Source of the DNA: Candidatus Giovannonibacteria bacterium RIFCSPHIGHO2_12_FULL_44_22
Lineage (GTDB): Bacteria; Patescibacteriota; Minisyncoccia; UBA11713; 2-01-FULL-45-33
Reading direction: 5' to 3'
DNA length: 64,000 nt
Assembly: GCA_001778695.1 (NCBI GenBank)
Contig: MFHU01000003.1
Coordinates: forward strand, 75,112-139,111
Below the pieces are notes generated by a model, which was not told where the DNA came from, made no database searches, and saw only the letters and a program-made list of their open reading frames with translations. The translations under genes were made by a program, and so were the position numbers. This document shows, one piece after another, positions 10,202-58,415 of the stretch (position 1 is the stretch's first letter; the number at the start of each line of letters is the position of its first letter).

Positions 10202-11047
10202 TTAATGCGCTGATTCGTCCAGAGGCAATTCATGTTTCGTCTCCTGATTTGAGCACGAAAAGTCTTCAGGATTGAAAGTGCCGGCCAGATAAGATTTAAA
10301 TAATCTCCCGGCGCAAGCCACTCGAAATGGGTAAGTAGGAGTCCAATCATGTTTCGCAGAATCAAATTTGGCAATCATCTCCGCCAGTTGCGGGTTTTCC
10401 CCCGAATGGGCTATAAAATACAGCTTGGTTGGAGTCATATCCTCGTTTTCCCATCCCGGTGTTTTCTTCGCGACGGAAATGAATCTATTCACTAAACCTT
10501 CCCCCGCGTGATACGCCCAAATTGCGTTGTTTATATTTCCGAAGCGCTCCGCGAGGCCGGCAAGATGTTTAGCCGAAGCCATTGTCGCCAATTTAGGATT
10601 AAATCTATCATCCCGCACGATAACTTTTTTATAAACGGGAATTCTTGTGATTTTCCCTTTGCGTCGGGCAACGACAGTTTTTTTAATATTGCCGTATTTA
10701 ACTAGCCCCATATTTTTTCCGGTAAGGGGCATAATTTGCCCGATTCCGGAAGCTCCCGAGCGGTTTTTTGCCGTGGGATCACAGCCACTTTCCAGAAGAA
10801 TGATTTCCAAGAGTTTGTCTTCCGGAAATCCGCTCGTTTCTGAGGCCTCGCGAAACATTTCAAGGTAGGTGGTCTTAGCGCATTCGCTAAGGCCTTTAAA
10901 GAATCTTTCTTTCGCAATGAAGACTCGCGCTTGCATCGCGATAAGGGCTTCCTCTTTCTCTTCAAAGATCTTGTTGGCATCTATCTCCTGCCCATACACT
11001 CGCAACGTAACGGCGAGCAATAAAATTGAAAAGATCGCTATTTTCAT
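10202..11047 (-). CDS. Secreted lytic transglycosylase (SLT domain)
   Basis: N-terminal signal peptide. SLT catalytic motif ESGCDP...SGASGIGQIMP. Strong SD GAAGGAGGG. Confidence 0.75.
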   Translation of the reverse strand: MKIAIFSILLLAVTLRVYGQEIDANKIFEEKEEALIAMQARVFIAKERFFKGLSECAKTTYLEMFREASETSGFPEDKLLEIILLESGCDPTAKNRSGASGIGQIMPLTGKNMGLVKYGNIKKTVVARRKGKITRIPVYKKVIVRDDRFNPKLATMASAKHLAGLAERFGNINNAIWAYHAGEGLVNRFISVAKKTPGWENEDMTPTKLYFIAHSGENPQLAEMIAKFDSAKHDWTPTYPFRVACAGRLFKSYLAGTFNPEDFSCSNQETKHELPLDESAH

Positions 11048-11203: not shown

Positions 11204-12076
11204 TTATACGCCTATCTTCCATATTTCTTTTTCAAGAAATGCTTCGATAGTTTGGCGCGTCGCTTTATTAATGAGATTTGAATGTGATAATTTATTTTCT
11301 TTTGCGTACTCGGCAAGTGTAATAATTTTCTTACCTTCCAAATACGCCAGCCTTTTGTGGTAACTATTAGTAAGCGACTTAGCTACAATTTCTTCCATAA
11401 TCTCTGTTTTACTTTTTGTGTCGAATTCCTTGAACGCATCATAATATTTTTTCCGGTCAATGAATTTTATGTTGATCGGCGCATATCCCTCACGAATTAA
11501 AAGATAATTATTGATCACTCGCCCAATGCGTCCATTACCATCTACAAACGGGTGCGTGTATTCAAAGGCAAGATGTAGCCCAGCAATTCGTTTAATAATA
11601 TTTTCTTGACTGCTCGCATGATATTCTGCAAGCATTTTTTCAAGTCGCCCCGCCACTTCTTCCGGCTTTGGCGCGATATGGCTTCCCACTCTCACATATT
11701 CTCCCGACGCACGAAACCTTCCGGCAACATCATCACGAATATTTGAGATAAGCATTTTATGGAGAGATAAAATAACATCAAGCGTTAATTCTTGTTCTTT
11801 GGCTCGCTTCTCTATATATGACACCACTCTAGCCAGATTTTTTGCTTCAAAAATTTCTCGCTCACTGATAAACCTGTCTAGGTCAATTTGGAGCAGTATT
11901 TTTTCAGTTTCTTCAAGAGTAAGCGTGCTATTTTCAATAGCGTTGGAGTTATAAACTTGTTCAGCAATTTCCGCTTCGCTCACAAGCTTAATAAGCGCCT
12001 CTTTGCCGGTAGACGCTTTATAGTATCTTTCACGCAGTGAGTGTATTTTATTAAAAACGCTTAATACTTTAGCCAT
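11204..12076 (-). CDS. Fic-family protein (AMPylase type) with an intramolecular inhibitory motif
   Basis: Fic motif HPFVDGNGRIGR. N-terminal SNAIEN matches the (S/T)xxxE(G/N) inhibitory helix. Confidence 0.8.
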   Translation of the reverse strand: MAKVLSVFNKIHSLRERYYKASTGKEALIKLVSEAEIAEQVYNSNAIENSTLTLEETEKILLQIDLDRFISEREIFEAKNLARVVSYIEKRAKEQELTLDVILSLHKMLISNIRDDVAGRFRASGEYVRVGSHIAPKPEEVAGRLEKMLAEYHASSQENIIKRIAGLHLAFEYTHPFVDGNGRIGRVINNYLLIREGYAPINIKFIDRKKYYDAFKEFDTKSKTEIMEEIVAKSLTNSYHKRLAYLEGKKIITLAEYAKENKLSHSNLINKATRQTIEAFLEKEIWKIGV

Positions 12077-19855: not shown

Positions 19856-20545
19856 CTATCGCTGGCCGGAATAGCGCGCCCCCTTTTTCATGATGTATGG
19901 GACTTGGGCGGGCGAAGACAATTGCCGGAATGAAGCAGCGGCGAAAGGCAGGCCAGGGTAGATATTAAAGTTTTTTTGAGAAATATTGATTACCTCCAAT
20001 ACTGCGTGACCAACCCAACCGGCATGGAAAATCGGAGAAGAAACATGGGACGTCATGCCATCGCGAGCTAAGCGACTTTTGCCATTCAGTTCCATTTGTA
20101 TGTCGTAAGGGACACATATGATTTCAAGCGTGTGCGCAAGTGCTAACATTCCTGGTTGCAGCTCCACTGTTTCGTCGTGATCAATGGTGAATTTTATCCG
20201 ATGTTCGTCTTCAATGGAGACCTTTCTGGTTTTTTCCAAAAGATTTATATTGTTATTGCGGTAATCTCTTGTCAATCTCCGGATCACCCGTCTTCCATCA
20301 ATTTTCACAACTTCCAGGATGGTATCCGCGATTTCTATCTCGGTACCAAACCGGAGATCAATAGTATCGGCATCAAGGGCGCTCGTAGGGGGTAGAGGAT
20401 CAATGATGATTTTTCCTTTTTTTAAAGCCAGCTCTAATTTTCTAGGAATCTTTCCTCGCGCCACTTCTTCCAAAAAATAAGGCTTGAGCCCTACCCTTTC
20501 CAAGGTGGTAAGTCGTTTTTTAAAATCGCGATCTGACAGAATCAT
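19856..20545 (-). CDS. dcd: dCTP deaminase
   Basis: N-terminus MILSDRDFKKRL resembles E. coli Dcd MRLCDRDIEAWL. dUTPase-fold motifs SRLARDGM and GWVGHAVLEV (catalytic Glu present), plus C-terminal ARYSGQ. Confidence 0.7.
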   Translation of the reverse strand: MILSDRDFKKRLTTLERVGLKPYFLEEVARGKIPRKLELALKKGKIIIDPLPPTSALDADTIDLRFGTEIEIADTILEVVKIDGRRVIRRLTRDYRNNNINLLEKTRKVSIEDEHRIKFTIDHDETVELQPGMLALAHTLEIICVPYDIQMELNGKSRLARDGMTSHVSSPIFHAGWVGHAVLEVINISQKNFNIYPGLPFAAASFRQLSSPAQVPYIMKKGARYSGQR

Positions 20546-20692
20546 AAGCTTGCTCCTTTCGTTTTTTATTCACAAACTTTCTGGGCTGATAATAGCAAGG
20601 CATTTTAATAATGTCAAAAATGTCAAATAGATTTAAAATTTGATTTTTAAAGGCGGATATGCTTTCTTAATATTTAGAAGGGAGATAGAAAT

Positions 20693-21085
20693 ATGGAAGC
20701 ACTTTTACATGACTCAGCATTAGCGTTGGTCAAAATAAACACCTATGACTCCATCTTCGTCAGCGAACTTTTTGGTTTTAATGTGGATGGAGCTCCTGGA
20801 GAGGTTTGTTACTGCGGAATATGCCAAGGTGGCATGAAGCGATTTACTGGTAATGGCACTTCAGTGATTTACTGCAAAAGATGTGGTTTGCGCGTGAATT
20901 TGCCAAGCGACGTTATGTCTCTGGATGATTTGATTGAATATCTTTCTTTTGAGAATTTGGAAGAAGATATAGTGCGGCGCGGCATTTGTCCGAGATGTTT
21001 CGGAACGAAGAAAATCCAAGTGATCGGCGAAAGCCACGGGTTAAAAATTCCAGAAATTTTTAACTGTTCAAAGTGTCAAGAATAA
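20693..21085 (+). CDS. Hypothetical tetra-CxxC zinc-ribbon protein
   Basis: CYCGIC, CKRCG, CPRCFG and CSKCQ motifs. SD GGGAGATAG. Confidence 0.45.
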   Translation: MEALLHDSALALVKINTYDSIFVSELFGFNVDGAPGEVCYCGICQGGMKRFTGNGTSVIYCKRCGLRVNLPSDVMSLDDLIEYLSFENLEEDIVRRGICPRCFGTKKIQVIGESHGLKIPEIFNCSKCQE

Positions 21086-21106
21086 AAAAGAAAGGAGAAT
21101 CGCTAT

Positions 21107-22639
21107 ATGGACTGGCCAGTATACGAAACAAGCCAAATTATTGTAGGCAATTTAGAAAGTCCAGTAGCGATAACCACGCTCTGGACAAATAAGGAACCGA
21201 TTGCTAATCAGATTGGCGACAAGCGCCTGTATTGCGCCGTGGGGACACTCTATAATCGCAAAGTGGGGATTGATTTGTTGGTGCGGAATTTGCTTGCGCG
21301 CCCGACCATCCGCAATTTAATTATCTGCGGACATGATCGCGCGAGAAGTGGCGAGGCGCTTATAAAGTTTTTCCGCCACGGTTTCAAGCGCGGAGTTGAC
21401 GGCAACGGCAACCCGAAATGGATTATTGACCTAAGCGATGGAGATTATGGCGTCATTGATATTGAGGTGGAAGAAGAAATGCTCCATCTCCTAAGAAAAA
21501 ACGTTACTTTCCTTGATTTTCGCGGCACAGAAGACGGAAGCGCTCTCTGTTCGGTGTTGGAAGATTTACACTCTAGCACCAAAGCCGTTTCTTACGCAGA
21601 AGCTAAAATTTTCCCGAAAGTGATACCGGCTGTGTCTTCTTTGCCGGCGCCGGACAGCGGACGCGTGTTTCGGTCTCCTACCGTTGTGGGCGCTTGGTTG
21701 CAGGCGATCCGCGAGATTTCCAAGTTTGGGGTGGTGGGCGATACCCATTACAATCCGGCTGCCGAAGTGCTGAATATTCTAACAGTCATAACCGCGGAAA
21801 ATCCTAATGACTTTTTCGTTCCGGATTGGCTGCCTATCGGACGGAAGGAAATTAAGGCGTATTGTGAGCAGGTGCTGACACCGATACTCTCACCCGGCGC
21901 GCGCTATGGCTATGGCCATCGTATTTTCAAATACTTCGGCTATGACCAGCTTGAAACGTCTGTTAAAAAATTAGTCGAAGACCCCGATTCAAAAAGCGGA
22001 GTCATAAATATTTGGGATCCGGCTAAAGATGTTGGCGATCTGGTAAATCCTAAATCGCCGTGCGTCAACAAAATTTGGCCGAGGTTGCGGCGGGGCAAAC
22101 TTTTTATGACTGTCACAATTCGCTCAAACGACATCGGCGAAGCATATTTAGGGAATGGTTTTGCTTTTAGGCGTTTTCAGGCGGAGTATCTTAGAATACT
22201 AAGAGAGTTGATGGTAGAACAGGAACTTTCGTTGGGCGACCTTACTATTAATTCTGAATCTGCCCATCTCTACGAATCAAGTTGGTCTAATGTTGAGGAA
22301 ACGCTTAATCGGCGTTGGAAGGAAGTTATGAAAGGTCCTGCTGTGCGCCAGGATCCTTATGGCTCTTTCCGAATCGTTGTGGATGTAGAATCCAAAATGA
22401 TTATAGCGACGCATTTTTCGCCGGGCGATGATATTATCGCGGAATATCGCCGCAGGACTGCCTTAGAGCTTACAACCAAGCTTGCAGATGATGGTATTAT
22501 GTCAGAACCATATCACGCTGCTTATCTTGGGCGCGAGCTCCAAAAAGCGGAGTTTGCTTTGCAATTTGGGTTGAACTACATTCAAGACCAGCCTCTTTTT
22601 AAGGTGCACGGTCCCAAGCCGCGTATTCTTCTCGAATAG
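21107..22639 (+). CDS. Thymidylate-synthase (ThyA) fold enzyme with an N-terminal extension of about 180 aa and a C-terminal extension of about 90 aa
   Basis: Residues about 180-420 align with ThyA. GARYGYGHRIF matches ThyA GPVYGKQWR. EDPDSKSGVINIWDP matches NDPDSRRIIVSAWN. Active-site Cys in SPCVNK matches PCH. RSNDIGEAYLGNGF has Asn at the ThyA N177 position. AHLYES matches THLYSN. Strong SD AAAGGAGAA. Confidence 0.6.
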   Translation: MDWPVYETSQIIVGNLESPVAITTLWTNKEPIANQIGDKRLYCAVGTLYNRKVGIDLLVRNLLARPTIRNLIICGHDRARSGEALIKFFRHGFKRGVDGNGNPKWIIDLSDGDYGVIDIEVEEEMLHLLRKNVTFLDFRGTEDGSALCSVLEDLHSSTKAVSYAEAKIFPKVIPAVSSLPAPDSGRVFRSPTVVGAWLQAIREISKFGVVGDTHYNPAAEVLNILTVITAENPNDFFVPDWLPIGRKEIKAYCEQVLTPILSPGARYGYGHRIFKYFGYDQLETSVKKLVEDPDSKSGVINIWDPAKDVGDLVNPKSPCVNKIWPRLRRGKLFMTVTIRSNDIGEAYLGNGFAFRRFQAEYLRILRELMVEQELSLGDLTINSESAHLYESSWSNVEETLNRRWKEVMKGPAVRQDPYGSFRIVVDVESKMIIATHFSPGDDIIAEYRRRTALELTTKLADDGIMSEPYHAAYLGRELQKAEFALQFGLNYIQDQPLFKVHGPKPRILLE

Positions 22640-22702: not shown

Positions 22703-23242
22703 ATGATTCTTGGGTCAACGGAGTTTTTGAGGTTGGTAAAAGAGATTAATTTGGTTGAGAATTTGTCGAAACGCGAACTTACTAATCCGGAAGGCGCCGG
22801 TTTTGATTTGCGCCTGGGAAAACTTTTTAGATTAAAAGGAAAAGGTTTTCTTGGTGTGAATGAACGCGAAACTCCAAAGGTTGAGCTCGCGGCGGAATTC
22901 AACTCCGGGAAAGCGCAGTCTGTGATTATAAAACCGGGCGAATATTTTTTAACCGAAACAATAGAAAAACTTAATATGCCGCTGGATTTGCTGGGCATTG
23001 TAAAACCGCGAACGACTCTGCATCGCTCGGGCATAATTACTAGAGTATCAATCGCCGACCCTGGTTATTCAGGAGTTTTGCATCCGGCTATTTATAACGC
23101 TGGGGGTGTTGAAGTGGAAATAGAAATGGGCGCGCGCTACGTTAATATTATGTTTTTTGAAGTTAAGGGCGACACGGCAAAATACCGCGGCCAGTGGCAG
23201 GGCGGCCGTGCCACTACCCAAGGAAGAGAAACTCAAATATAA
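22703..23242 (+). CDS. Second dUTPase-fold protein (Dcd/Dut-like) lacking the Dcd catalytic Glu
   Basis: RTTLHRSGI, DPGYSGVLHPAIYN (no Glu where Dcd has ..LE..) and C-terminal KYRGQWQGG. Confidence 0.55.
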   Translation: MILGSTEFLRLVKEINLVENLSKRELTNPEGAGFDLRLGKLFRLKGKGFLGVNERETPKVELAAEFNSGKAQSVIIKPGEYFLTETIEKLNMPLDLLGIVKPRTTLHRSGIITRVSIADPGYSGVLHPAIYNAGGVEVEIEMGARYVNIMFFEVKGDTAKYRGQWQGGRATTQGRETQI

Positions 23243-25106: not shown

Positions 25107-25649
25107 ATGCGGCGGAGAATTATTTACGAGCCAACTTTAAGCGATGCGGCGTTGCTTATTCTTGACGCGGCAGGCAAAATTTTTATTAAATCTTTTTGGC
25201 CGCATCCTTATTATCATACGTTCTGCAATCACAAACCCAAGCAGTCTTTTAGAAACGCCCTTAGTCGTTTGGAAAATAAAGGTTTGATAGTTGGCGAACG
25301 CAGAAACGGCAAAGTTATTTTTAACCTTTCCGATAATGGAGAGAAGCTCGCTAAACGCTTGAAATTGAAACTGGAACTTGCCAAGAAATGGCGCTGGGAC
25401 GGAAAGTGGAGAATTTTAATTTTTGACGTGCCGGAGAAAATCCGAGGGAAGCGCGATTTTTTAAGGCGCGAACTTATTGATTTCGGATTTTATCCTCTTC
25501 AAAAAAGCGTCTGGGTTTATCCTTACAATCTACCGGAAGACTTTTTTGATATTTTTAACGAACTTGATTTTGGAGAACAATTAGTTTTGGTTGAATCCGC
25601 GAATATCAAACAAGACGATTCTATCCGAGCGTTTTTCGGCTTATCTTAA
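25107..25649 (+). CDS. PaaX-like transcriptional regulator (wHTH N-terminus plus a Cas2/VapD-like C-terminal fold)
   Basis: ALSRLENKGLIV...NGKVIFNLSDNGEKL wHTH-like pattern. C-terminal WRILIFDVPEKIRGKRDFLRRELIDFGF...QKSVW resembles the PaaX_C/Cas2-like strand-helix pattern. Confidence 0.45.
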   Translation: MRRRIIYEPTLSDAALLILDAAGKIFIKSFWPHPYYHTFCNHKPKQSFRNALSRLENKGLIVGERRNGKVIFNLSDNGEKLAKRLKLKLELAKKWRWDGKWRILIFDVPEKIRGKRDFLRRELIDFGFYPLQKSVWVYPYNLPEDFFDIFNELDFGEQLVLVESANIKQDDSIRAFFGLS

Positions 25650-25719: not shown

Positions 25720-27294
25720 ATGTTAAGCTCATCGGTAATGGATTGGTTCAACAAGTTCACAACAAGCCGGTGGCATTTTTTGTTGGTTATAATTTTGTTG
25801 GGCGCAGCAAATTTTGCTTACGCGTCCGTTGGCGATGTCGCGATTTCCGAAGTTTTATTTGACCCGGCCGGAGGCACGGACACAGGATTAGAATACGTTG
25901 TAATAAAAAATTTTGGTTCCTCCGCGGTGGATGTATCAGGTTGGGATTTATATCCATCGGGCGCCGGATATTTTACTTTGCCCAGCTTTAGTTTAGGTGG
26001 CGGAAAAGAACTTAAAATACATTTGCGGGCAAGCGGTAATAATGATGATGGCAATCTTTACCATACAAATGCTTCTGCCAATATGGGCAACTCATCTGGT
26101 TCTTTGGCGCTTTTTTCTAGCACGACACATAGTAAAGACACGATTATTTCTTATATTAGATATCACAAACCGGGAAGCGGAGAGAGCAAAACATGGGAAA
26201 CGGCCGCCGCGGGCACCGAATTGTGGACTGCCGGAACATTTTTTGATATTTCATCGGGCACTGAAGGAAAAATTTTAAAACTTATTGATTATAATCAAAA
26301 AACGAGCGTGTCCGGCTGGTCTTTGGCTGAAGCTTCTGCTCAAAGCGATGTTGGTGTTGGACCGGCGTCCGTTACAGAAAATGATGTTGCCGCTACATTT
26401 TCCGGAAGCGTTGCTCCGCTGCCGGTGAACCAGATAAAAGCTTATGCCGGGCCGGATCGCGCGGGCATCGCCGGAGGAGAAATATTTTTTGAAGGCTTCG
26501 CCGAAGGTTTGCAAGGCGACCCGTTGGACGGCGCGAGATTTTCTTGGAATTTCGGCGACGGCGCCGCATTAGTAGACGGCAAAAAAATCGGGCACACTTT
26601 TCTTTTTCCAGGCGTTTATACGGTTTCTTTAAACGTGTCCGCGGGAGAATATTCTGCGCTGGATACAGCCAATTTGGTTGTTACCGAGAGCCCACTTTTG
26701 ATTTCTGAGATAAAAACTGGCGCTGATGGCTGGGTTGAGATAAAAAATAATTCAGCTCGGAAAATTGAAATTTCGCGGTTTGGATTTGGAGAAAGTAATT
26801 TCAAGCCATTTTTCTTTCCAGAAAATACTTATTTGGCGCCCTGGGCTTTGGTGGTTTTGGGCACGTCAACTCTGGGATTTATTTTGCCGGAAAGCGGCGA
26901 GATAAAATTGCTTTATCCCAACGGTAAAATTATTTTTTCATCAAATTATCCGAATTTAAATTTAGGGAGCGATGAAAGTTTAAGTCTTGAAAATGGCGGA
27001 CCTGCCTCGCCTGGCGCGAATCAAGGCGGGTGGCTTAAAACAAAAATCACTCCGGGCTTGAAAAACGAGATAACAAAATCTATTGCGCTTTCGGCAAAAA
27101 GTGCCGCGGAACCGAAAGCCAAACCGCCCACGGCCATTGTGGAAAATCTAGGAAACGCCCAAACCGCCTCGGTTATCAGTATTGAAAAACCGTCTTCATT
27201 TTTAAACGACTATTTTTGGCTTTTTGTTGGTCTCGGCGCCGGAATTTTTGCTGGCCTCATTTTTGTGATAATCCGTCACAGTTTTACGTTATAA
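25720..27294 (+). CDS. Cell-surface protein: signal/TM, lamin-tail domain, PKD domain, second lamin-tail domain, C-terminal TM anchor
   Basis: LTD patterns ISEVLFDPAGG..EYVVIKN..VDVSGWDL and LISEIKTGADGWVEIKNNS. PKD-like FSWNFGDGA...GVYTVSLNV. C-terminal hydrophobic anchor. Confidence 0.55.
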   Translation: MLSSSVMDWFNKFTTSRWHFLLVIILLGAANFAYASVGDVAISEVLFDPAGGTDTGLEYVVIKNFGSSAVDVSGWDLYPSGAGYFTLPSFSLGGGKELKIHLRASGNNDDGNLYHTNASANMGNSSGSLALFSSTTHSKDTIISYIRYHKPGSGESKTWETAAAGTELWTAGTFFDISSGTEGKILKLIDYNQKTSVSGWSLAEASAQSDVGVGPASVTENDVAATFSGSVAPLPVNQIKAYAGPDRAGIAGGEIFFEGFAEGLQGDPLDGARFSWNFGDGAALVDGKKIGHTFLFPGVYTVSLNVSAGEYSALDTANLVVTESPLLISEIKTGADGWVEIKNNSARKIEISRFGFGESNFKPFFFPENTYLAPWALVVLGTSTLGFILPESGEIKLLYPNGKIIFSSNYPNLNLGSDESLSLENGGPASPGANQGGWLKTKITPGLKNEITKSIALSAKSAAEPKAKPPTAIVENLGNAQTASVISIEKPSSFLNDYFWLFVGLGAGIFAGLIFVIIRHSFTL

Positions 27295-56886: not shown

Positions 56887-56906
56887 AAAAAGGGCGGTTA
56901 GGACGC
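56881..56906 (-). terminator. Terminator hairpin for the radical SAM gene
   Basis: Minus-strand reading AGGGCG-TCCTAAC-CGCCCT followed by TTTTTTT. Confidence 0.5.
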
Positions 56907-58415
56907 CCTGTCGGCGCGGGATTTGAGCCGCGCGGCAACGTATTCTGGAGTGTTTACCTCCCGCCATGCGCTTTCTCTTATTTCAATAAGCTTGTCGGGC
57001 GGGATGATGGTATTTTTCATCATCACATTCATCCAGTTCATTTTATCTGGATCAAAATTTTGATCAAGATGGTTTTGCGCGAGAGCTATTTCATAAAGCC
57101 TGCTTCCCGGAAATGGGATGGGGATAAAAAATGCGCAGTACGGAGCGCCAGCTTCCACAAGTCGCTTTCCAAGTTCTATGGTTTGGCGAATCTCGTTTTT
57201 GGTTTCGTCAGGAAAGCCGATCATCATATTGATTGGACATTTAATGCCTAGGCGGGAAGCAATGCGTACCAATTCGACAACATCCAGTCTATCCAGGTTT
57301 AACTTTGCTGTTGCGTATTTATCTAAGATCCGCTGCGATCCAGATTCCACCGGGAAGGAAATCTCGTCAAATCCGGCGTTCTTTAAAAGTTCAAGGTATT
57401 CCACATCAATTTTCAATCTACCGCTATGCTTGTGCTGAAAATGAATAAGGTTGACTCCGTTGATGGCAGCGATTTCCAGTCCCATACCAAGCACACTTTC
57501 AAAGATAGTTTTTACTCGACTTTTTTTGGCAAGAAGACTGTCATCCTCAAAAAAGAGTTTTTTAACACCGAGATTTCGCAAGCGTTCCACTTCTTCCAAA
57601 ACGCGCTCCACTGATTTTAAGCGCAAAGAACCAATGCCTCCACTGCCAGCCGAATCCACTTTTTCCATAGAGATATGACAGTAGAGACACTCAAAAGGGC
57701 AACCGCGGGATGTCATAATGGGCGCGTAGCGCGCTTTTTGTGGCGAATCGGCGCCGCTTCGAGACGAGGTAATCGCGTCATAATGCTTGAAGAGAAGTTT
57801 ATCCCAAGCGGGAATCGGTAGGTCATCCAGATTAGCGTATGCGTCTCCCGGCATAACGGCGTTTTTTAGATGTTGTTCGCCTGTTTTATATAACACGCCA
57901 GACACTTTTTCAAATCCGCGGCCTCGCGCTAATTCTTCCGCTGTCCTGACAATAATTTTTTCTGCTTCCGTCAGGCAAACGGCGTCCACATGGTCGCTAT
58001 CCAAAAAACATTTTGCCAGATTTCTGGCGTTCACTCCACCGACAATAACTTTGATGTCAGCGCTACCGCTCTTCGCAATTGCGGCGACTTCCAACGCCAT
58101 GCGGGTTTGGGCGGTGAAATTTGAATTGATGCCTACGCACGCGTACCCGCCCTTCGCAATAAATTCCCGCAACCGCTCTTGCGACATTCCTATGCGAATC
58201 AGTCCGTTTGGCTGCCTTACGGCGCGGTAGAAAGTTTCTGTTAATTCGTCGTCTGCGTTGCCGACAGAAACGTCTAAAACGTCTGTTTCAAAGCCGGCGC
58301 GCTGAAGCGCGCTGGCAAGATACAGGAGGCCTAACGAACCGTCCGGCCTCGGAACCTCTATATCCATCAGCTGGTTTGGCGGATATACCAATAGAATTTT
58401 TGGATTCCTAATCAT
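56898..58415 (-). CDS. B12-binding radical SAM enzyme (class B radical SAM methyltransferase-like)
   Basis: N-terminal cobalamin-binding-like domain. Radical SAM cluster motif TSRGCPFECLYCH (CxxxCxxC). Confidence 0.7.
   Translation of the reverse strand: MIRNPKILLVYPPNQLMDIEVPRPDGSLGLLYLASALQRAGFETDVLDVSVGNADDELTETFYRAVRQPNGLIRIGMSQERLREFIAKGGYACVGINSNFTAQTRMALEVAAIAKSGSADIKVIVGGVNARNLAKCFLDSDHVDAVCLTEAEKIIVRTAEELARGRGFEKVSGVLYKTGEQHLKNAVMPGDAYANLDDLPIPAWDKLLFKHYDAITSSRSGADSPQKARYAPIMTSRGCPFECLYCHISMEKVDSAGSGGIGSLRLKSVERVLEEVERLRNLGVKKLFFEDDSLLAKKSRVKTIFESVLGMGLEIAAINGVNLIHFQHKHSGRLKIDVEYLELLKNAGFDEISFPVESGSQRILDKYATAKLNLDRLDVVELVRIASRLGIKCPINMMIGFPDETKNEIRQTIELGKRLVEAGAPYCAFFIPIPFPGSRLYEIALAQNHLDQNFDPDKMNWMNVMMKNTIIPPDKLIEIRESAWREVNTPEYVAARLKSRADRAS

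Follow-up and report, generated by a model that had tools for sequence, protein, structure and literature searches.

Gene content of the locus

The window analysed here is a stretch of 64,000 nucleotides (64 kb) on contig MFHU01000003.1 of Candidatus Giovannonibacteria bacterium RIFCSPHIGHO2_12_FULL_44_22, a bacterium of the candidate phyla radiation (CPR). It contains a gene for a 510-aa protein in which a short thymidylate synthase (TS) domain of the ThyA type lies between an N-terminal domain resembling the corrinoid protein MtrA and a C-terminal domain of the family PterinBD-DUF4346 (PF14251, hereafter DUF4346). The gene follows that of a small protein with four CxxC pairs, and the two lie between two genes of the DCD (dCTP deaminase) family. 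An original prediction, made from the letters of the sequence, had recognised both open reading frames (ORFs) and their strong Shine-Dalgarno sequences, and both stand: GGGAG at 20680-20684 serves the 130-aa gene and AAGGAG the 510-aa gene, with a spacing of 8-9 nt to the ATG in either case. The features of the locus are as follows.

21107..22639, + strand: gene of the tri-domain thymidylate synthase, 510 aa (ORF; three domains by Pfam)
21107..21652, + strand: N-terminal MtrA-like domain of Rossmann type, residues 1-182 (PF04208, E 3e-8)
21656..22324, + strand: short archaeal-type ThyA domain, residues 184-406 (PF00303, E 9e-11; TIGR03283, E 5e-29)
22340..22600, + strand: C-terminal PterinBD-DUF4346 domain, residues 412-498 (PF14251, E 2e-19; 70.7 bits against a cut-off of 29.6)
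21092..21097, + strand: Shine-Dalgarno sequence AAGGAG of the 510-aa gene, 9 nt 5' of the ATG (read from the sequence)
20693..21085, + strand: gene of the double zinc-ribbon (4xCxxC) protein, 130 aa (ORF)
19856..20545, - strand: dCTP deaminase, 229 aa, upstream and divergent (TIGR02274, 110.9 bits against a cut-off of 92.8; Pfam DCD, E 9e-21)
22703..23242, + strand: DCD-family paralogue, 179 aa, directly downstream of the 510-aa gene (Pfam DCD, 5e-21; dUTPase, 3e-8)

Domain architecture of the 510-aa protein

Three Pfam families match the 510-aa protein, all above the gathering score: MtrA (PF04208) over residues 2-157, Thymidylat_synt (PF00303) over 264-406 and PterinBD-DUF4346 (PF14251) over 415-494. 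The domain limits given above (1-182, 184-406 and 412-498) were set with hidden Markov models (HMMs) of the family itself and agree with the sizes of about 180, 240 and 90 aa estimated originally. The likeness of the N-terminal domain to MtrA, then proposed with low confidence, is borne out by the PF04208 match above cut-off. An AlphaFold2 model of the whole protein has a mean predicted local distance difference test (pLDDT) value of 86.5 and a predicted template modelling score (pTM) of 0.76. The outer domains, which might have turned out to be a dihydrofolate reductase (DHFR) or ordinary linkers, match PF04208 and PF14251 instead; a DHFR or other known reductase within them found neither sequence nor fold support and was rejected.

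The thymidylate synthase core

Conservation was scored in alignments of first 23 and then 158 family representatives. The catalytic motifs of the core are P318-C319, R339-S340-N-D342 and A386-H387-L-Y389, and they are kept almost throughout the family: C319 (C146 in E. coli) occurs in 156 of the 158 representatives, R339, S340 and D342 (R166, S167 and D169) in 154, 151 and 152, N350 (N177) in 155, and H387 and Y389 (H207 and Y209) in 147 and 151, while Y269 (Y94) and E220 (E58) are found in 155 and 148, that is, in at least 93% for every position. The ThyA fold, the catalytic Cys, the RS.D motif, the Asn at the dUMP-specifying position and the HLY motif that had been read from this one sequence are confirmed. 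The phosphate-binding Arg pair R126'/R127', which in ThyA comes from the partner subunit, is represented by K296-S297 in the 510-aa protein and by R-R in the family majority (101 and 82 of 158, respectively). The best-scoring TS model is TIGR03283, the methanogen-type ThyA, which matches residues 188-395 with an E-value of 5e-29.

Among homologues of TS, the exchange N177D marks enzymes acting on dCMP, D169N the flavin-dependent 5-hydroxy-dCMP synthases and an acidic residue at L143 the hydroxymethylases, since a bulky hydrophobic L143 excludes water and so leads to a methyl rather than a hydroxymethyl product (PMC13326640). The 510-aa protein has Asn (N350) at the first and Asp (D342) at the second of these positions, which indicates dUMP as substrate and a cofactor of the pterin type. 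At the L143 position the family has N, G, S, H or K, with Gly in 64 of 76 viral homologues and an acidic residue in about 11% of members.

An MtrA-like domain without the cobalt ligand

Cobalamin binding by MtrA depends on His84 as cobalt ligand, on its hydrogen-bond partner Glu54, on Asn55 and on a meander of sequence GAIPF(Y/F)xEN, whereas the nucleotide tail is contacted by Thr53, Gly57 and Asn64 and its base is stacked between Tyr18 and Val61 (PMC4915002). When the 510-aa protein is aligned to PDB 5LAA, His84 falls on E83 and Glu54 on R51. The same loss runs through the fused family: the 158 representatives have E, K, Q, D or A at the His84 position and K, A, R or P at that of Glu54, a Gly-His near the His84 position occurs in only two of them and a Glu54 motif of the TEN type in none, and none of 78 viral proteins contains CGx3-6GH or TENxGxE. 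Asn55 and the meander motif are likewise missing from the fused forms. The tail contacts have fared differently. Position 50, which corresponds to Thr53, is S or T in 136 of 158 (Asn in the 510-aa protein), G54 and N61, which correspond to Gly57 and Asn64, are kept in at least 90%, and the surroundings of this pocket have gained three invariant residues, W26, Y49 and R60 (n=158). The domain carries no transmembrane anchor, and no mtrB-H genes lie nearby.

Judged from these residues, the N-terminal domain is thus an MtrA-fold domain whose cobalt ligand has been lost and whose ligand pocket is conserved, though remodelled. The 510-aa protein belongs to the MtrA family by sequence and fold, but 'corrinoid protein' would be a misnomer. 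Binding of cobalamin in the His-on mode is ruled out for this domain by the alignment with 5LAA together with the conservation pattern of the whole family.

A 'CGHD' containing His76 (21332..21334), the only His nearby, occurs eight residues before the MtrA His84 position in the 510-aa protein and its close relatives. The rest of the family has A, N, Q, R, S or K there, and because it is not conserved His76 is probably no cobalt ligand.

The C-terminal domain DUF4346

The C-terminal domain has the motif DPxGxF...HAAYLGRELxKAE...YxQD, whose columns are invariant in the alignment (D416, G419, H470, G475, E477, L478, A481 and Q493). Its predicted fold consists of three beta strands followed by two helices (AlphaFold2, pLDDT 87.7), and no sequence relative was found in the PDB. 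The same invariant residues recur where DUF4346 is fused to true MtrA and where it forms the C-terminus of archaeal proteins resembling dihydropteroate synthase (DHPS), of the MJ0301/TIGR00284 type.

The domain also occurs in other settings. Additional stand-alone DUF4346 genes lie upstream of the tri-domain TS at two loci (L007:1552-1935 and L029:2049-2528), another (L052:4189-4533) lies directly 3' of an MtrH gene with no ThyA nearby, and a metagenome-assembled genome (MAG) of Proteobacteria encodes a 420-aa protein (L028:7983-9245) with a His-less MtrA-like domain and DUF4346, about 160 residues between the two and no TS domain; an FhaA/FHA gene adjoins it.

Unfused relatives: the same parts as separate genes

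A search with the family's domain HMMs, Pfam and a metagenome scan revealed arrangements in which the same parts are split over several genes. Most frequent is a gene for MtrA and DUF4346 in one chain directly upstream of a separate ThyA gene, which was found at 20 loci, 17 of them metagenomic and three others (L070, L078 and L080), of which L070 belongs to the complete Nealsonbacteria genome CP179887.1. Further separation is seen on an Altiarchaeota contig (L073), where four abutting genes encode MtrA, MtrH, ThyA and DUF4346 (Pfam MtrA 2.6e-52, MtrH 1.7e-41), as well as in the orders MtrA-MtrH-DUF4346-ThyA-DCD (L179) and MtrH-DUF4346-ThyA-DCD (L181), and a Micrarchaeota contig (L030) has ThyA together with a separate DUF4346 gene. 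With the exception of one 5'-truncated ORF (L171), the MtrA of these split forms keeps TENxGxE and CGxxxxGH, and hence Glu54 and His84, as well as the meander, which here reads GAxGxxPxLKN.

The ThyA that follows MtrA-DUF4346 is a variant with K-T-N-D for R-S-x-D, with H or Q at the H207 position and with an insert whose conserved cysteines (YPDC...GKC) may be metal-binding. In L073 the ThyA residues are the canonical ones. The variant is located as follows.

L070:8803-9603, L078:8893-9714, L080:2554-3372 and L166-L194: variant ThyA following the His84-positive MtrA-DUF4346 gene

Because the same parts occur as separate, adjacent genes, the association of ThyA, MtrA and DUF4346 is independent of fusion; it spans bacteria and archaea and is found in operons of the dTMP pathway. 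Similarly, since unfused ThyA adjoins bona fide MtrA, DUF4346 and sometimes MtrH, the link to corrinoids is real at the level of the system's ancestry. The corrinoid-based one-carbon supply originally suspected therefore survives in part: it holds for the ancestry of the system, where His84-positive MtrA stands beside unfused ThyA, and is disfavoured for the 510-aa protein because His84, Glu54 and the meander are lost in it and in the 158 representatives. As regards the outer domains themselves, the retention of invariant polar residues across bacteria, archaea and phages and the presence of DUF4346 beside ThyA in every gene arrangement found suggest that they are functional and not relics.

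Stand-alone proteins of His84-positive MtrA and DUF4346 were also observed (P0025, P0028, P0030 and P0037; L061 and L075), often with a Cys-rich N-terminal region. Away from ThyA, their gene context (heavy-metal ATPase, ArsR, transposase) was uninformative. The position beside a heavy-metal P-type ATPase (L061) or an ArsR-type regulator (L075) suggests a separate role of this corrinoid protein outside thymidylate synthesis.

Distribution and gene neighbourhood of the family

A word-indexed search returned about 24 tri-domain proteins. When 1.8 billion cluster representatives were searched exhaustively with a profile, 996 proteins matched at E <= 1e-30, and at E < 1e-111 there were at least 150 members of full length, so that 150 clusters at 50% identity are a lower bound for the size of the family. 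Among genomes that represent species, the complete architecture is present in archaea in Woese-, Aenigm-, Micr- and Nanoarchaeota, and in bacteria in Nealsonbacteria, Saccharibacteria and other Patescibacteria, Tatlockia, Magnetococcales, Acidobacteriota and Cyanobacteria, including the cultured Aetokthonos hydrillicola CCALA 1050. IMG/VR contributes 93 viral relatives, mostly full tri-domain genes on contigs of uncultured phages up to 200 kb long, and in 46 of 80 viral loci the gene for NrdA of class Ia ribonucleotide reductase (RNR) lies about 1 kb downstream, with NrdB nearby. In deposited phage genomes, as in PHROGs, matches are confined to the TS domain, with no record covering 80% or more of the protein, and the architecture was not found among BFVD models (maximum TMq 0.40).

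The most conserved neighbour across the family is a DCD gene, found next to the TS-family gene at 13 of 31 loci from genomes and at 18 of 33 from metagenomes; CPR bacteria, Nanoarchaeota and Chloroflexales all show this adjacency. A dCMP deaminase gene is adjacent in 6 of 31 and a thymidylate kinase gene in 4 of 31 genome loci, the latter also in 5 of 33 metagenome loci. The proposal that the genes of the window form a block leading from dCTP through dUMP to dTMP is supported by these recurrent neighbours. An MtrH-type methyltransferase was found neither near any fused gene nor in the viral loci examined, and folA neither in the window nor near the viral copies.

Two individual neighbourhoods may be noted. 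On the Chloroflexales contig of P0019 a DCD gene with an intein comes after the tri-domain TS, and after it the gene of a 667-aa DNA C5 cytosine methylase (PF00145). In a Tatlockia MAG the gene just past DCD, two genes away from the tri-domain TS, encodes an ATP:corrinoid adenosyltransferase (BtuR/CobO; L008:6912-7448, - strand).

In the literature searched there was no paper mentioning DUF4346 or PF14251, no meaningful link of MtrA, MtrH or corrinoid proteins with thymidylate synthase, and no co-occurrence of 'MtrA-like' with dihydrofolate reductase, and we found in it no description of the tri-domain architecture, its split relatives or the function of DUF4346. The architecture is already implicit in database domain tables and behind the automatic label 'thymidylate synthase'.

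Neighbouring genes and base composition

Both genes flanking the pair belong to the DCD family, as originally recognised. The upstream protein passes the equivalog cut-off for dCTP deaminase. The downstream paralogue of 179 aa stays below the NCBIfam cut-offs (dCTP_deam 84.9 against 92.8; archaeal-type dUTPase NF002598 73.9 against 130), and its domain matches make it dUTPase-like or possibly a bifunctional dCTP deaminase/dUTPase. Apart from the 510-aa gene, no canonical thyA, thyX, folA, glyA, folD or folate-biosynthesis gene is annotated within the window, which answers for this stretch the question whether a separate thyA, thyX or folA is present.

The 130-aa protein indeed possesses the four CxxC pairs first described (C41/C44, C61/C64, C99/C102 and C125/C128), and all these Cys are kept in an orthologue of 40% identity that occupies the same position in the relative L004. 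It matches no Pfam, NCBIfam or PHROG family, its homologues form only two clusters among 5.8 billion proteins, and, L004 excepted, an orthologue is missing from every other TS-family locus examined. The gene is probably co-transcribed with the 510-aa gene; its product is a lineage-restricted orphan of Giovannonibacteria and their relatives and no conserved partner of the TS family, and the idea of a conserved pair of zinc-ribbon protein and synthase is thereby ruled out.

A second idea that had to be given up is that of a GC-richer, possibly horizontally acquired island of two genes. The 130-aa gene has a GC content of 41.2% (rank 33 of 60 genes in the window, z = -0.3), which is average, and the 510-aa gene one of 47.6% (rank 4 of 60, z = +1.7). 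The adjoining core genes are of similar composition (gyrB 47.4, rplK 48.8 and secD 48.8), and the 510-aa gene equals these core neighbours in GC per gene and in GC3, so that there is no compositional sign of recent acquisition. The order gyrB-secE-nusG-rplK-dcd-ZnR-TS-dcd'-secD is furthermore shared with L004, where the TS is 66% identical. The 510-aa protein is identical to KKS96829.1 (Candidatus Giovannonibacteria), and identical copies of it, of the 130-aa protein and of GyrB occur in several Giovannonibacteria MAGs, whose annotation for the 510-aa protein reads 'Thymidylate synthase' or 'hypothetical protein'.

Elsewhere in the window, 56898..58415 (- strand) encodes a protein of 505 aa that combines a B12-binding (PF02310) with a radical SAM (PF04055) domain, on account of which cobamides are probably available to, and used by, the organism. 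More than half of the window, from about 27303 to 64000, is taken up by a long, near-continuous cluster of glycosyltransferases (GT4, GT2), enzymes of nucleoside diphosphate-sugars, methyltransferases and asparagine synthase-like genes, together with several large proteins that lack a Pfam match; it resembles a locus for cell-envelope glycans. A PaaX-like regulator with a Cas2-like middle domain is encoded at 25107..25649 and is followed by a probable surface protein of 524 aa (25720..27294), which has lamin-tail and PKD domains and ends in a hydrophobic helix. A Fic/DOC family protein (11204..12076, - strand) adjoins an SLT-domain transglycosylase (10202..11047, - strand).

Possible mechanism and alternatives

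We tentatively favour, at somewhat less than an even chance, the reading that the 510-aa protein is the thymidylate synthase of this CPR genome, a classical pterin-dependent enzyme whose outer domains come from a corrinoid methyl-transfer module. Classical ThyA chemistry overall, which includes a variant with inert accessory domains, seems to us a little more probable than its contrary. Substrate, product and cofactor, as well as the roles of both outer domains, are in the following predicted from sequence. The two flanking DCD-family enzymes would lead from dCTP through dUTP to dUMP, Cys319 would attack C6 of dUMP, and a reduced pterin, i.e. a scavenged cofactor of the methylene-tetrahydrofolate type bound via Asp342, would provide the one-carbon unit, which on reduction to a methyl group would give dTMP. 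The outer domains would represent the two halves of a cytoplasmic corrinoid methyl-carrier, the MtrA domain and DUF4346, with ThyA inserted between them; the cobalt ligand has been lost in the fused lineage and the chemistry would now be independent of corrinoids. DUF4346 may supply a lid or cofactor-binding function missing from the truncated C-terminus of ThyA, and the remodelled pocket of the N-terminal domain, which formerly held the cobamide tail (W26, Y49, R60 and N61), could bind part of the cofactor or an effector nucleotide.

Several observations weigh against this reading. The protein fails the equivalog cut-offs of TS (TIGR03283 101.2 against 174.55; TIGR03284 25.8 against 108.35), and its short core ends after the H-x-Y helix and runs into DUF4346, so that the canonical C-terminal lid with its free carboxylate is absent. 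The L143 position, three residues before the Cys in a loop of uncertain alignment, is occupied by K316 and by no bulky hydrophobic residue, and because of this Lys the L143 rule does not tell a methyl from a hydroxymethyl product. DUF4346 is without structural relative, and its role as lid or in cofactor binding is one that we purely infer. The conserved pocket with its retained residues for the cobamide tail would also fit a cobamide bound His-off, another B12-binding enzyme is encoded in the window and cobamides are probably at hand, and the presence of a true corrinoid protein, sometimes with MtrH, beside ThyA in the unfused relatives is hard to explain if corrinoids never mattered.

These last points belong to the case for a thymidylate synthesis that depends on corrinoids, which we consider unlikely for the fused protein. 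Its N-terminal domain would hold a base-off/His-off cobamide, the C5 enolate of dUMP made by Cys319 would take the methyl group from methyl-Co(III), and Co(I) would be methylated anew from methyl-pterin, a step carried out by MtrH in systems that possess it or aided by DUF4346. Overall, dUMP + CH3-H4-pterin -> dTMP + H4-pterin would take place, with no dihydrofolate produced and DHFR unneeded. The system would form a triad of first methyltransferase (MT1, here MtrH), corrinoid protein (MtrA) and second methyltransferase (MT2, here ThyA). The operons with MtrH (L073, L179 and L181) are in keeping with such a triad, as are the 20 loci in which MtrA-DUF4346 with the Glu54 and His84 signature (except L171) directly precedes the ThyA variant, the tail contacts S/T50, G54 and N61 and the conserved pocket of the fused family, the B12-binding radical SAM enzyme of the window and the adenosyltransferase two genes from the fused TS in Tatlockia. 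The chemistry itself has precedents, as both His-off corrinoid proteins and the methylation of nucleophilic carbon by methylcobalamin are known (CFeSP, TsrM). On the other hand, His84, Glu54, Asn55 and the meander are gone from the fused family, neither MtrH nor another candidate MT1 lies near any fused gene or in the viral loci, and no activating enzyme was seen. Asp342, the equivalent of the pterin-binding Asp169, is kept in 152 of 158 and therefore points to a pterin in the ThyA site, and the family is common in phages with the aerobic class Ia RNR, a setting awkward for an oxygen-sensitive Co(I) cycle that needs reductive reactivation. For the split, His84-positive systems, corrinoid methyl transfer with ThyA as MT2 is less doubtful, though we would still not expect it; that this holds and that, jointly with it, the 510-aa protein is either a single-chain form with a His-off cobamide or a descendant switched back to pterin is about as unlikely as the corrinoid route in the fused protein.

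The remaining alternatives appear less probable still. Outer domains that serve a classical ThyA in oligomerisation, docking or allosteric regulation (e.g. nucleotide sensing), with no part in cofactor handling, would accord with the loss of the cobalt signature, with the lack of any relative of DUF4346 among ligand-binding folds, with its fusion to catalytic partners of three unrelated kinds (ThyA, MtrA and a DHPS-like domain), and with conserved residues that line a single side of a long helix in it, as might be expected of a protein-protein interface. We nevertheless regard this as rather improbable: the partners of DUF4346, whether DHPS-like, MtrH-adjacent, MtrA or ThyA, all handle pterin cofactors, which argues for a cofactor-related role, the invariant polar residues D416, H470, E477 and Q493 resemble a binding site more than an interface, and the occurrence of DUF4346 as a gene of its own beside a stand-alone short ThyA (L030, L073) suggests that it is a partner which ThyA needs in order to function. 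Slightly more doubtful is a dUMP hydroxymethylase or another pyrimidine-modifying enzyme of the TS superfamily that would feed DNA modification instead of, or besides, dTMP synthesis. The missing bulky hydrophobic at the L143 position (K316; Gly in most viral homologues), the absence of the canonical C-terminal lid needed for hydride transfer, the abundance of the family in phage contigs and the DNA C5 methylase adjoining the TS-DCD pair in Chloroflexales could be taken in its favour. However, Asn350 and Asp342 are residues of the dUMP/folate type and correspond to neither N177D nor D169N, acidic residues at the L143 position are rare, the neighbours are thymidylate kinase, DCD, dCMP deaminase and RNR and not glycosyltransferases or base-modifying enzymes, and a TS is essential in the minimal genomes of CPR and DPANN, with no other TS seen in the window. 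The phage-type modifying enzyme that had been considered from the outset is thus right about the company the family keeps and at odds with the diagnostic residues, which are those of a dUMP enzyme of pterin type. Least probable of all, in our estimate, are outer domains that replace DHFR without being homologous to it, in that a flavin or nicotinamide bound there would re-reduce dihydropterin or deliver hydride as in ThyX and make the enzyme self-sufficient in genomes and phages without folA. One could cite the analogy with DHFR-TS fusions, the Rossmann/flavodoxin-like fold of the N-terminal domain with a conserved aromatic pair and an Arg in its ligand pocket (W26, Y49 and R60), a distribution in reduced genomes and phages that resembles that of ThyX, the lack of folA in the window and near viral copies, and TS-fold enzymes that are able to use flavin (PMC13326640). 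A glycine-rich dinucleotide motif is missing, however, and the ancestry of the module is that of a corrinoid protein and not of a reductase.

Comparison with known systems

The core of the 510-aa protein is closest to the short archaeal ThyA (TIGR03283, MJ0757-like), with which it shares the early end after the H-x-Y helix and the same Cys, R-S-x-D, Asn and H-x-Y. The cofactor use of these archaeal enzymes is biochemically unsettled (PMC9931769, PMC9012536), and the present family may offer a handle on this question. It differs in that the core sits between an MtrA-like domain and DUF4346 and scores below the equivalog cut-off, and in that the host is here a CPR bacterium, with many relatives in phages. 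The N-terminal domain has the fold of MtrA (PDB 5LAA, 5L8X; PMC4915002), the pattern G-x7-G-I-x3-x-x-N-x-x-x-N-P-x-I-x-x-L-I-x-C-G and the tail contacts, in contrast to which His84, Glu54, Asn55, the GAIPFxxEN meander, the membrane anchor and the mtrB-H neighbours are lacking. DUF4346, for which the association with ThyA and MtrA would be a first functional context, links the protein to the archaeal DHPS-like MJ0301 type (TIGR00284: DUF6513, Pterin_bind and DUF4346), in which it is likewise C-terminal and contains HAAYLGxELxKAE (E 1.8e-11 to TIGR00284, residues 418-497); unlike here, the catalytic domain of that type is a pterin-binding TIM barrel and not ThyA, and an MtrA-like domain is absent.

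The top structural match of the 510-aa protein is PDB 9IQC, a flavin-dependent 5-hydroxy-dCMP synthase, which however has N177D and D169N where N350 and D342 are kept here. Similarly, the dCMP hydroxymethylase of T4 (gp42) and the CMP hydroxymethylase MilA possess N177D and an acidic L143 as opposed to N350 and K316. The DHFR-TS of protozoa and plants, to our knowledge the only well-known precedent for a multidomain ThyA, also joins ThyA to a further domain of the same cofactor cycle, and the 510-aa protein has matches among such structures in the PDB (2H2Q, 8DAE); it contains no DHFR domain, though, and its ThyA is central and not C-terminal.

As far as we know, thymidylate synthesis takes two forms only, by a folate-dependent ThyA that needs DHFR and by the flavin-dependent ThyX. 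In the family described here ThyA is tied physically or genetically to parts of a B12 methyl-carrier (MtrA, DUF4346 and sometimes MtrH), which could explain how thymidylate is supplied in organisms and phages whose cofactor metabolism is minimal. Should the fused enzyme prove to be a classical ThyA, it would still be a case of a corrinoid protein put to new use as an accessory part of a folate enzyme. The layout of MtrH, MtrA and ThyA in the operons of the unfused relatives, whose genes adjoin those of genuine B12 proteins and may point to a novel thymidylate route, resembles that of the MT1/corrinoid/MT2 systems (MtaB-MtaC-MtaA, and MetH as a fused form); the likeness is one of working principle and not of membership, the 510-aa protein itself being without MtrH and cobalt ligand, and we know of no MT2 with a ThyA fold. 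Were the corrinoid route true, it would represent a third mechanism of thymidylate synthesis beside ThyA and ThyX, one that depends on B12, makes no dihydrofolate and needs no DHFR.

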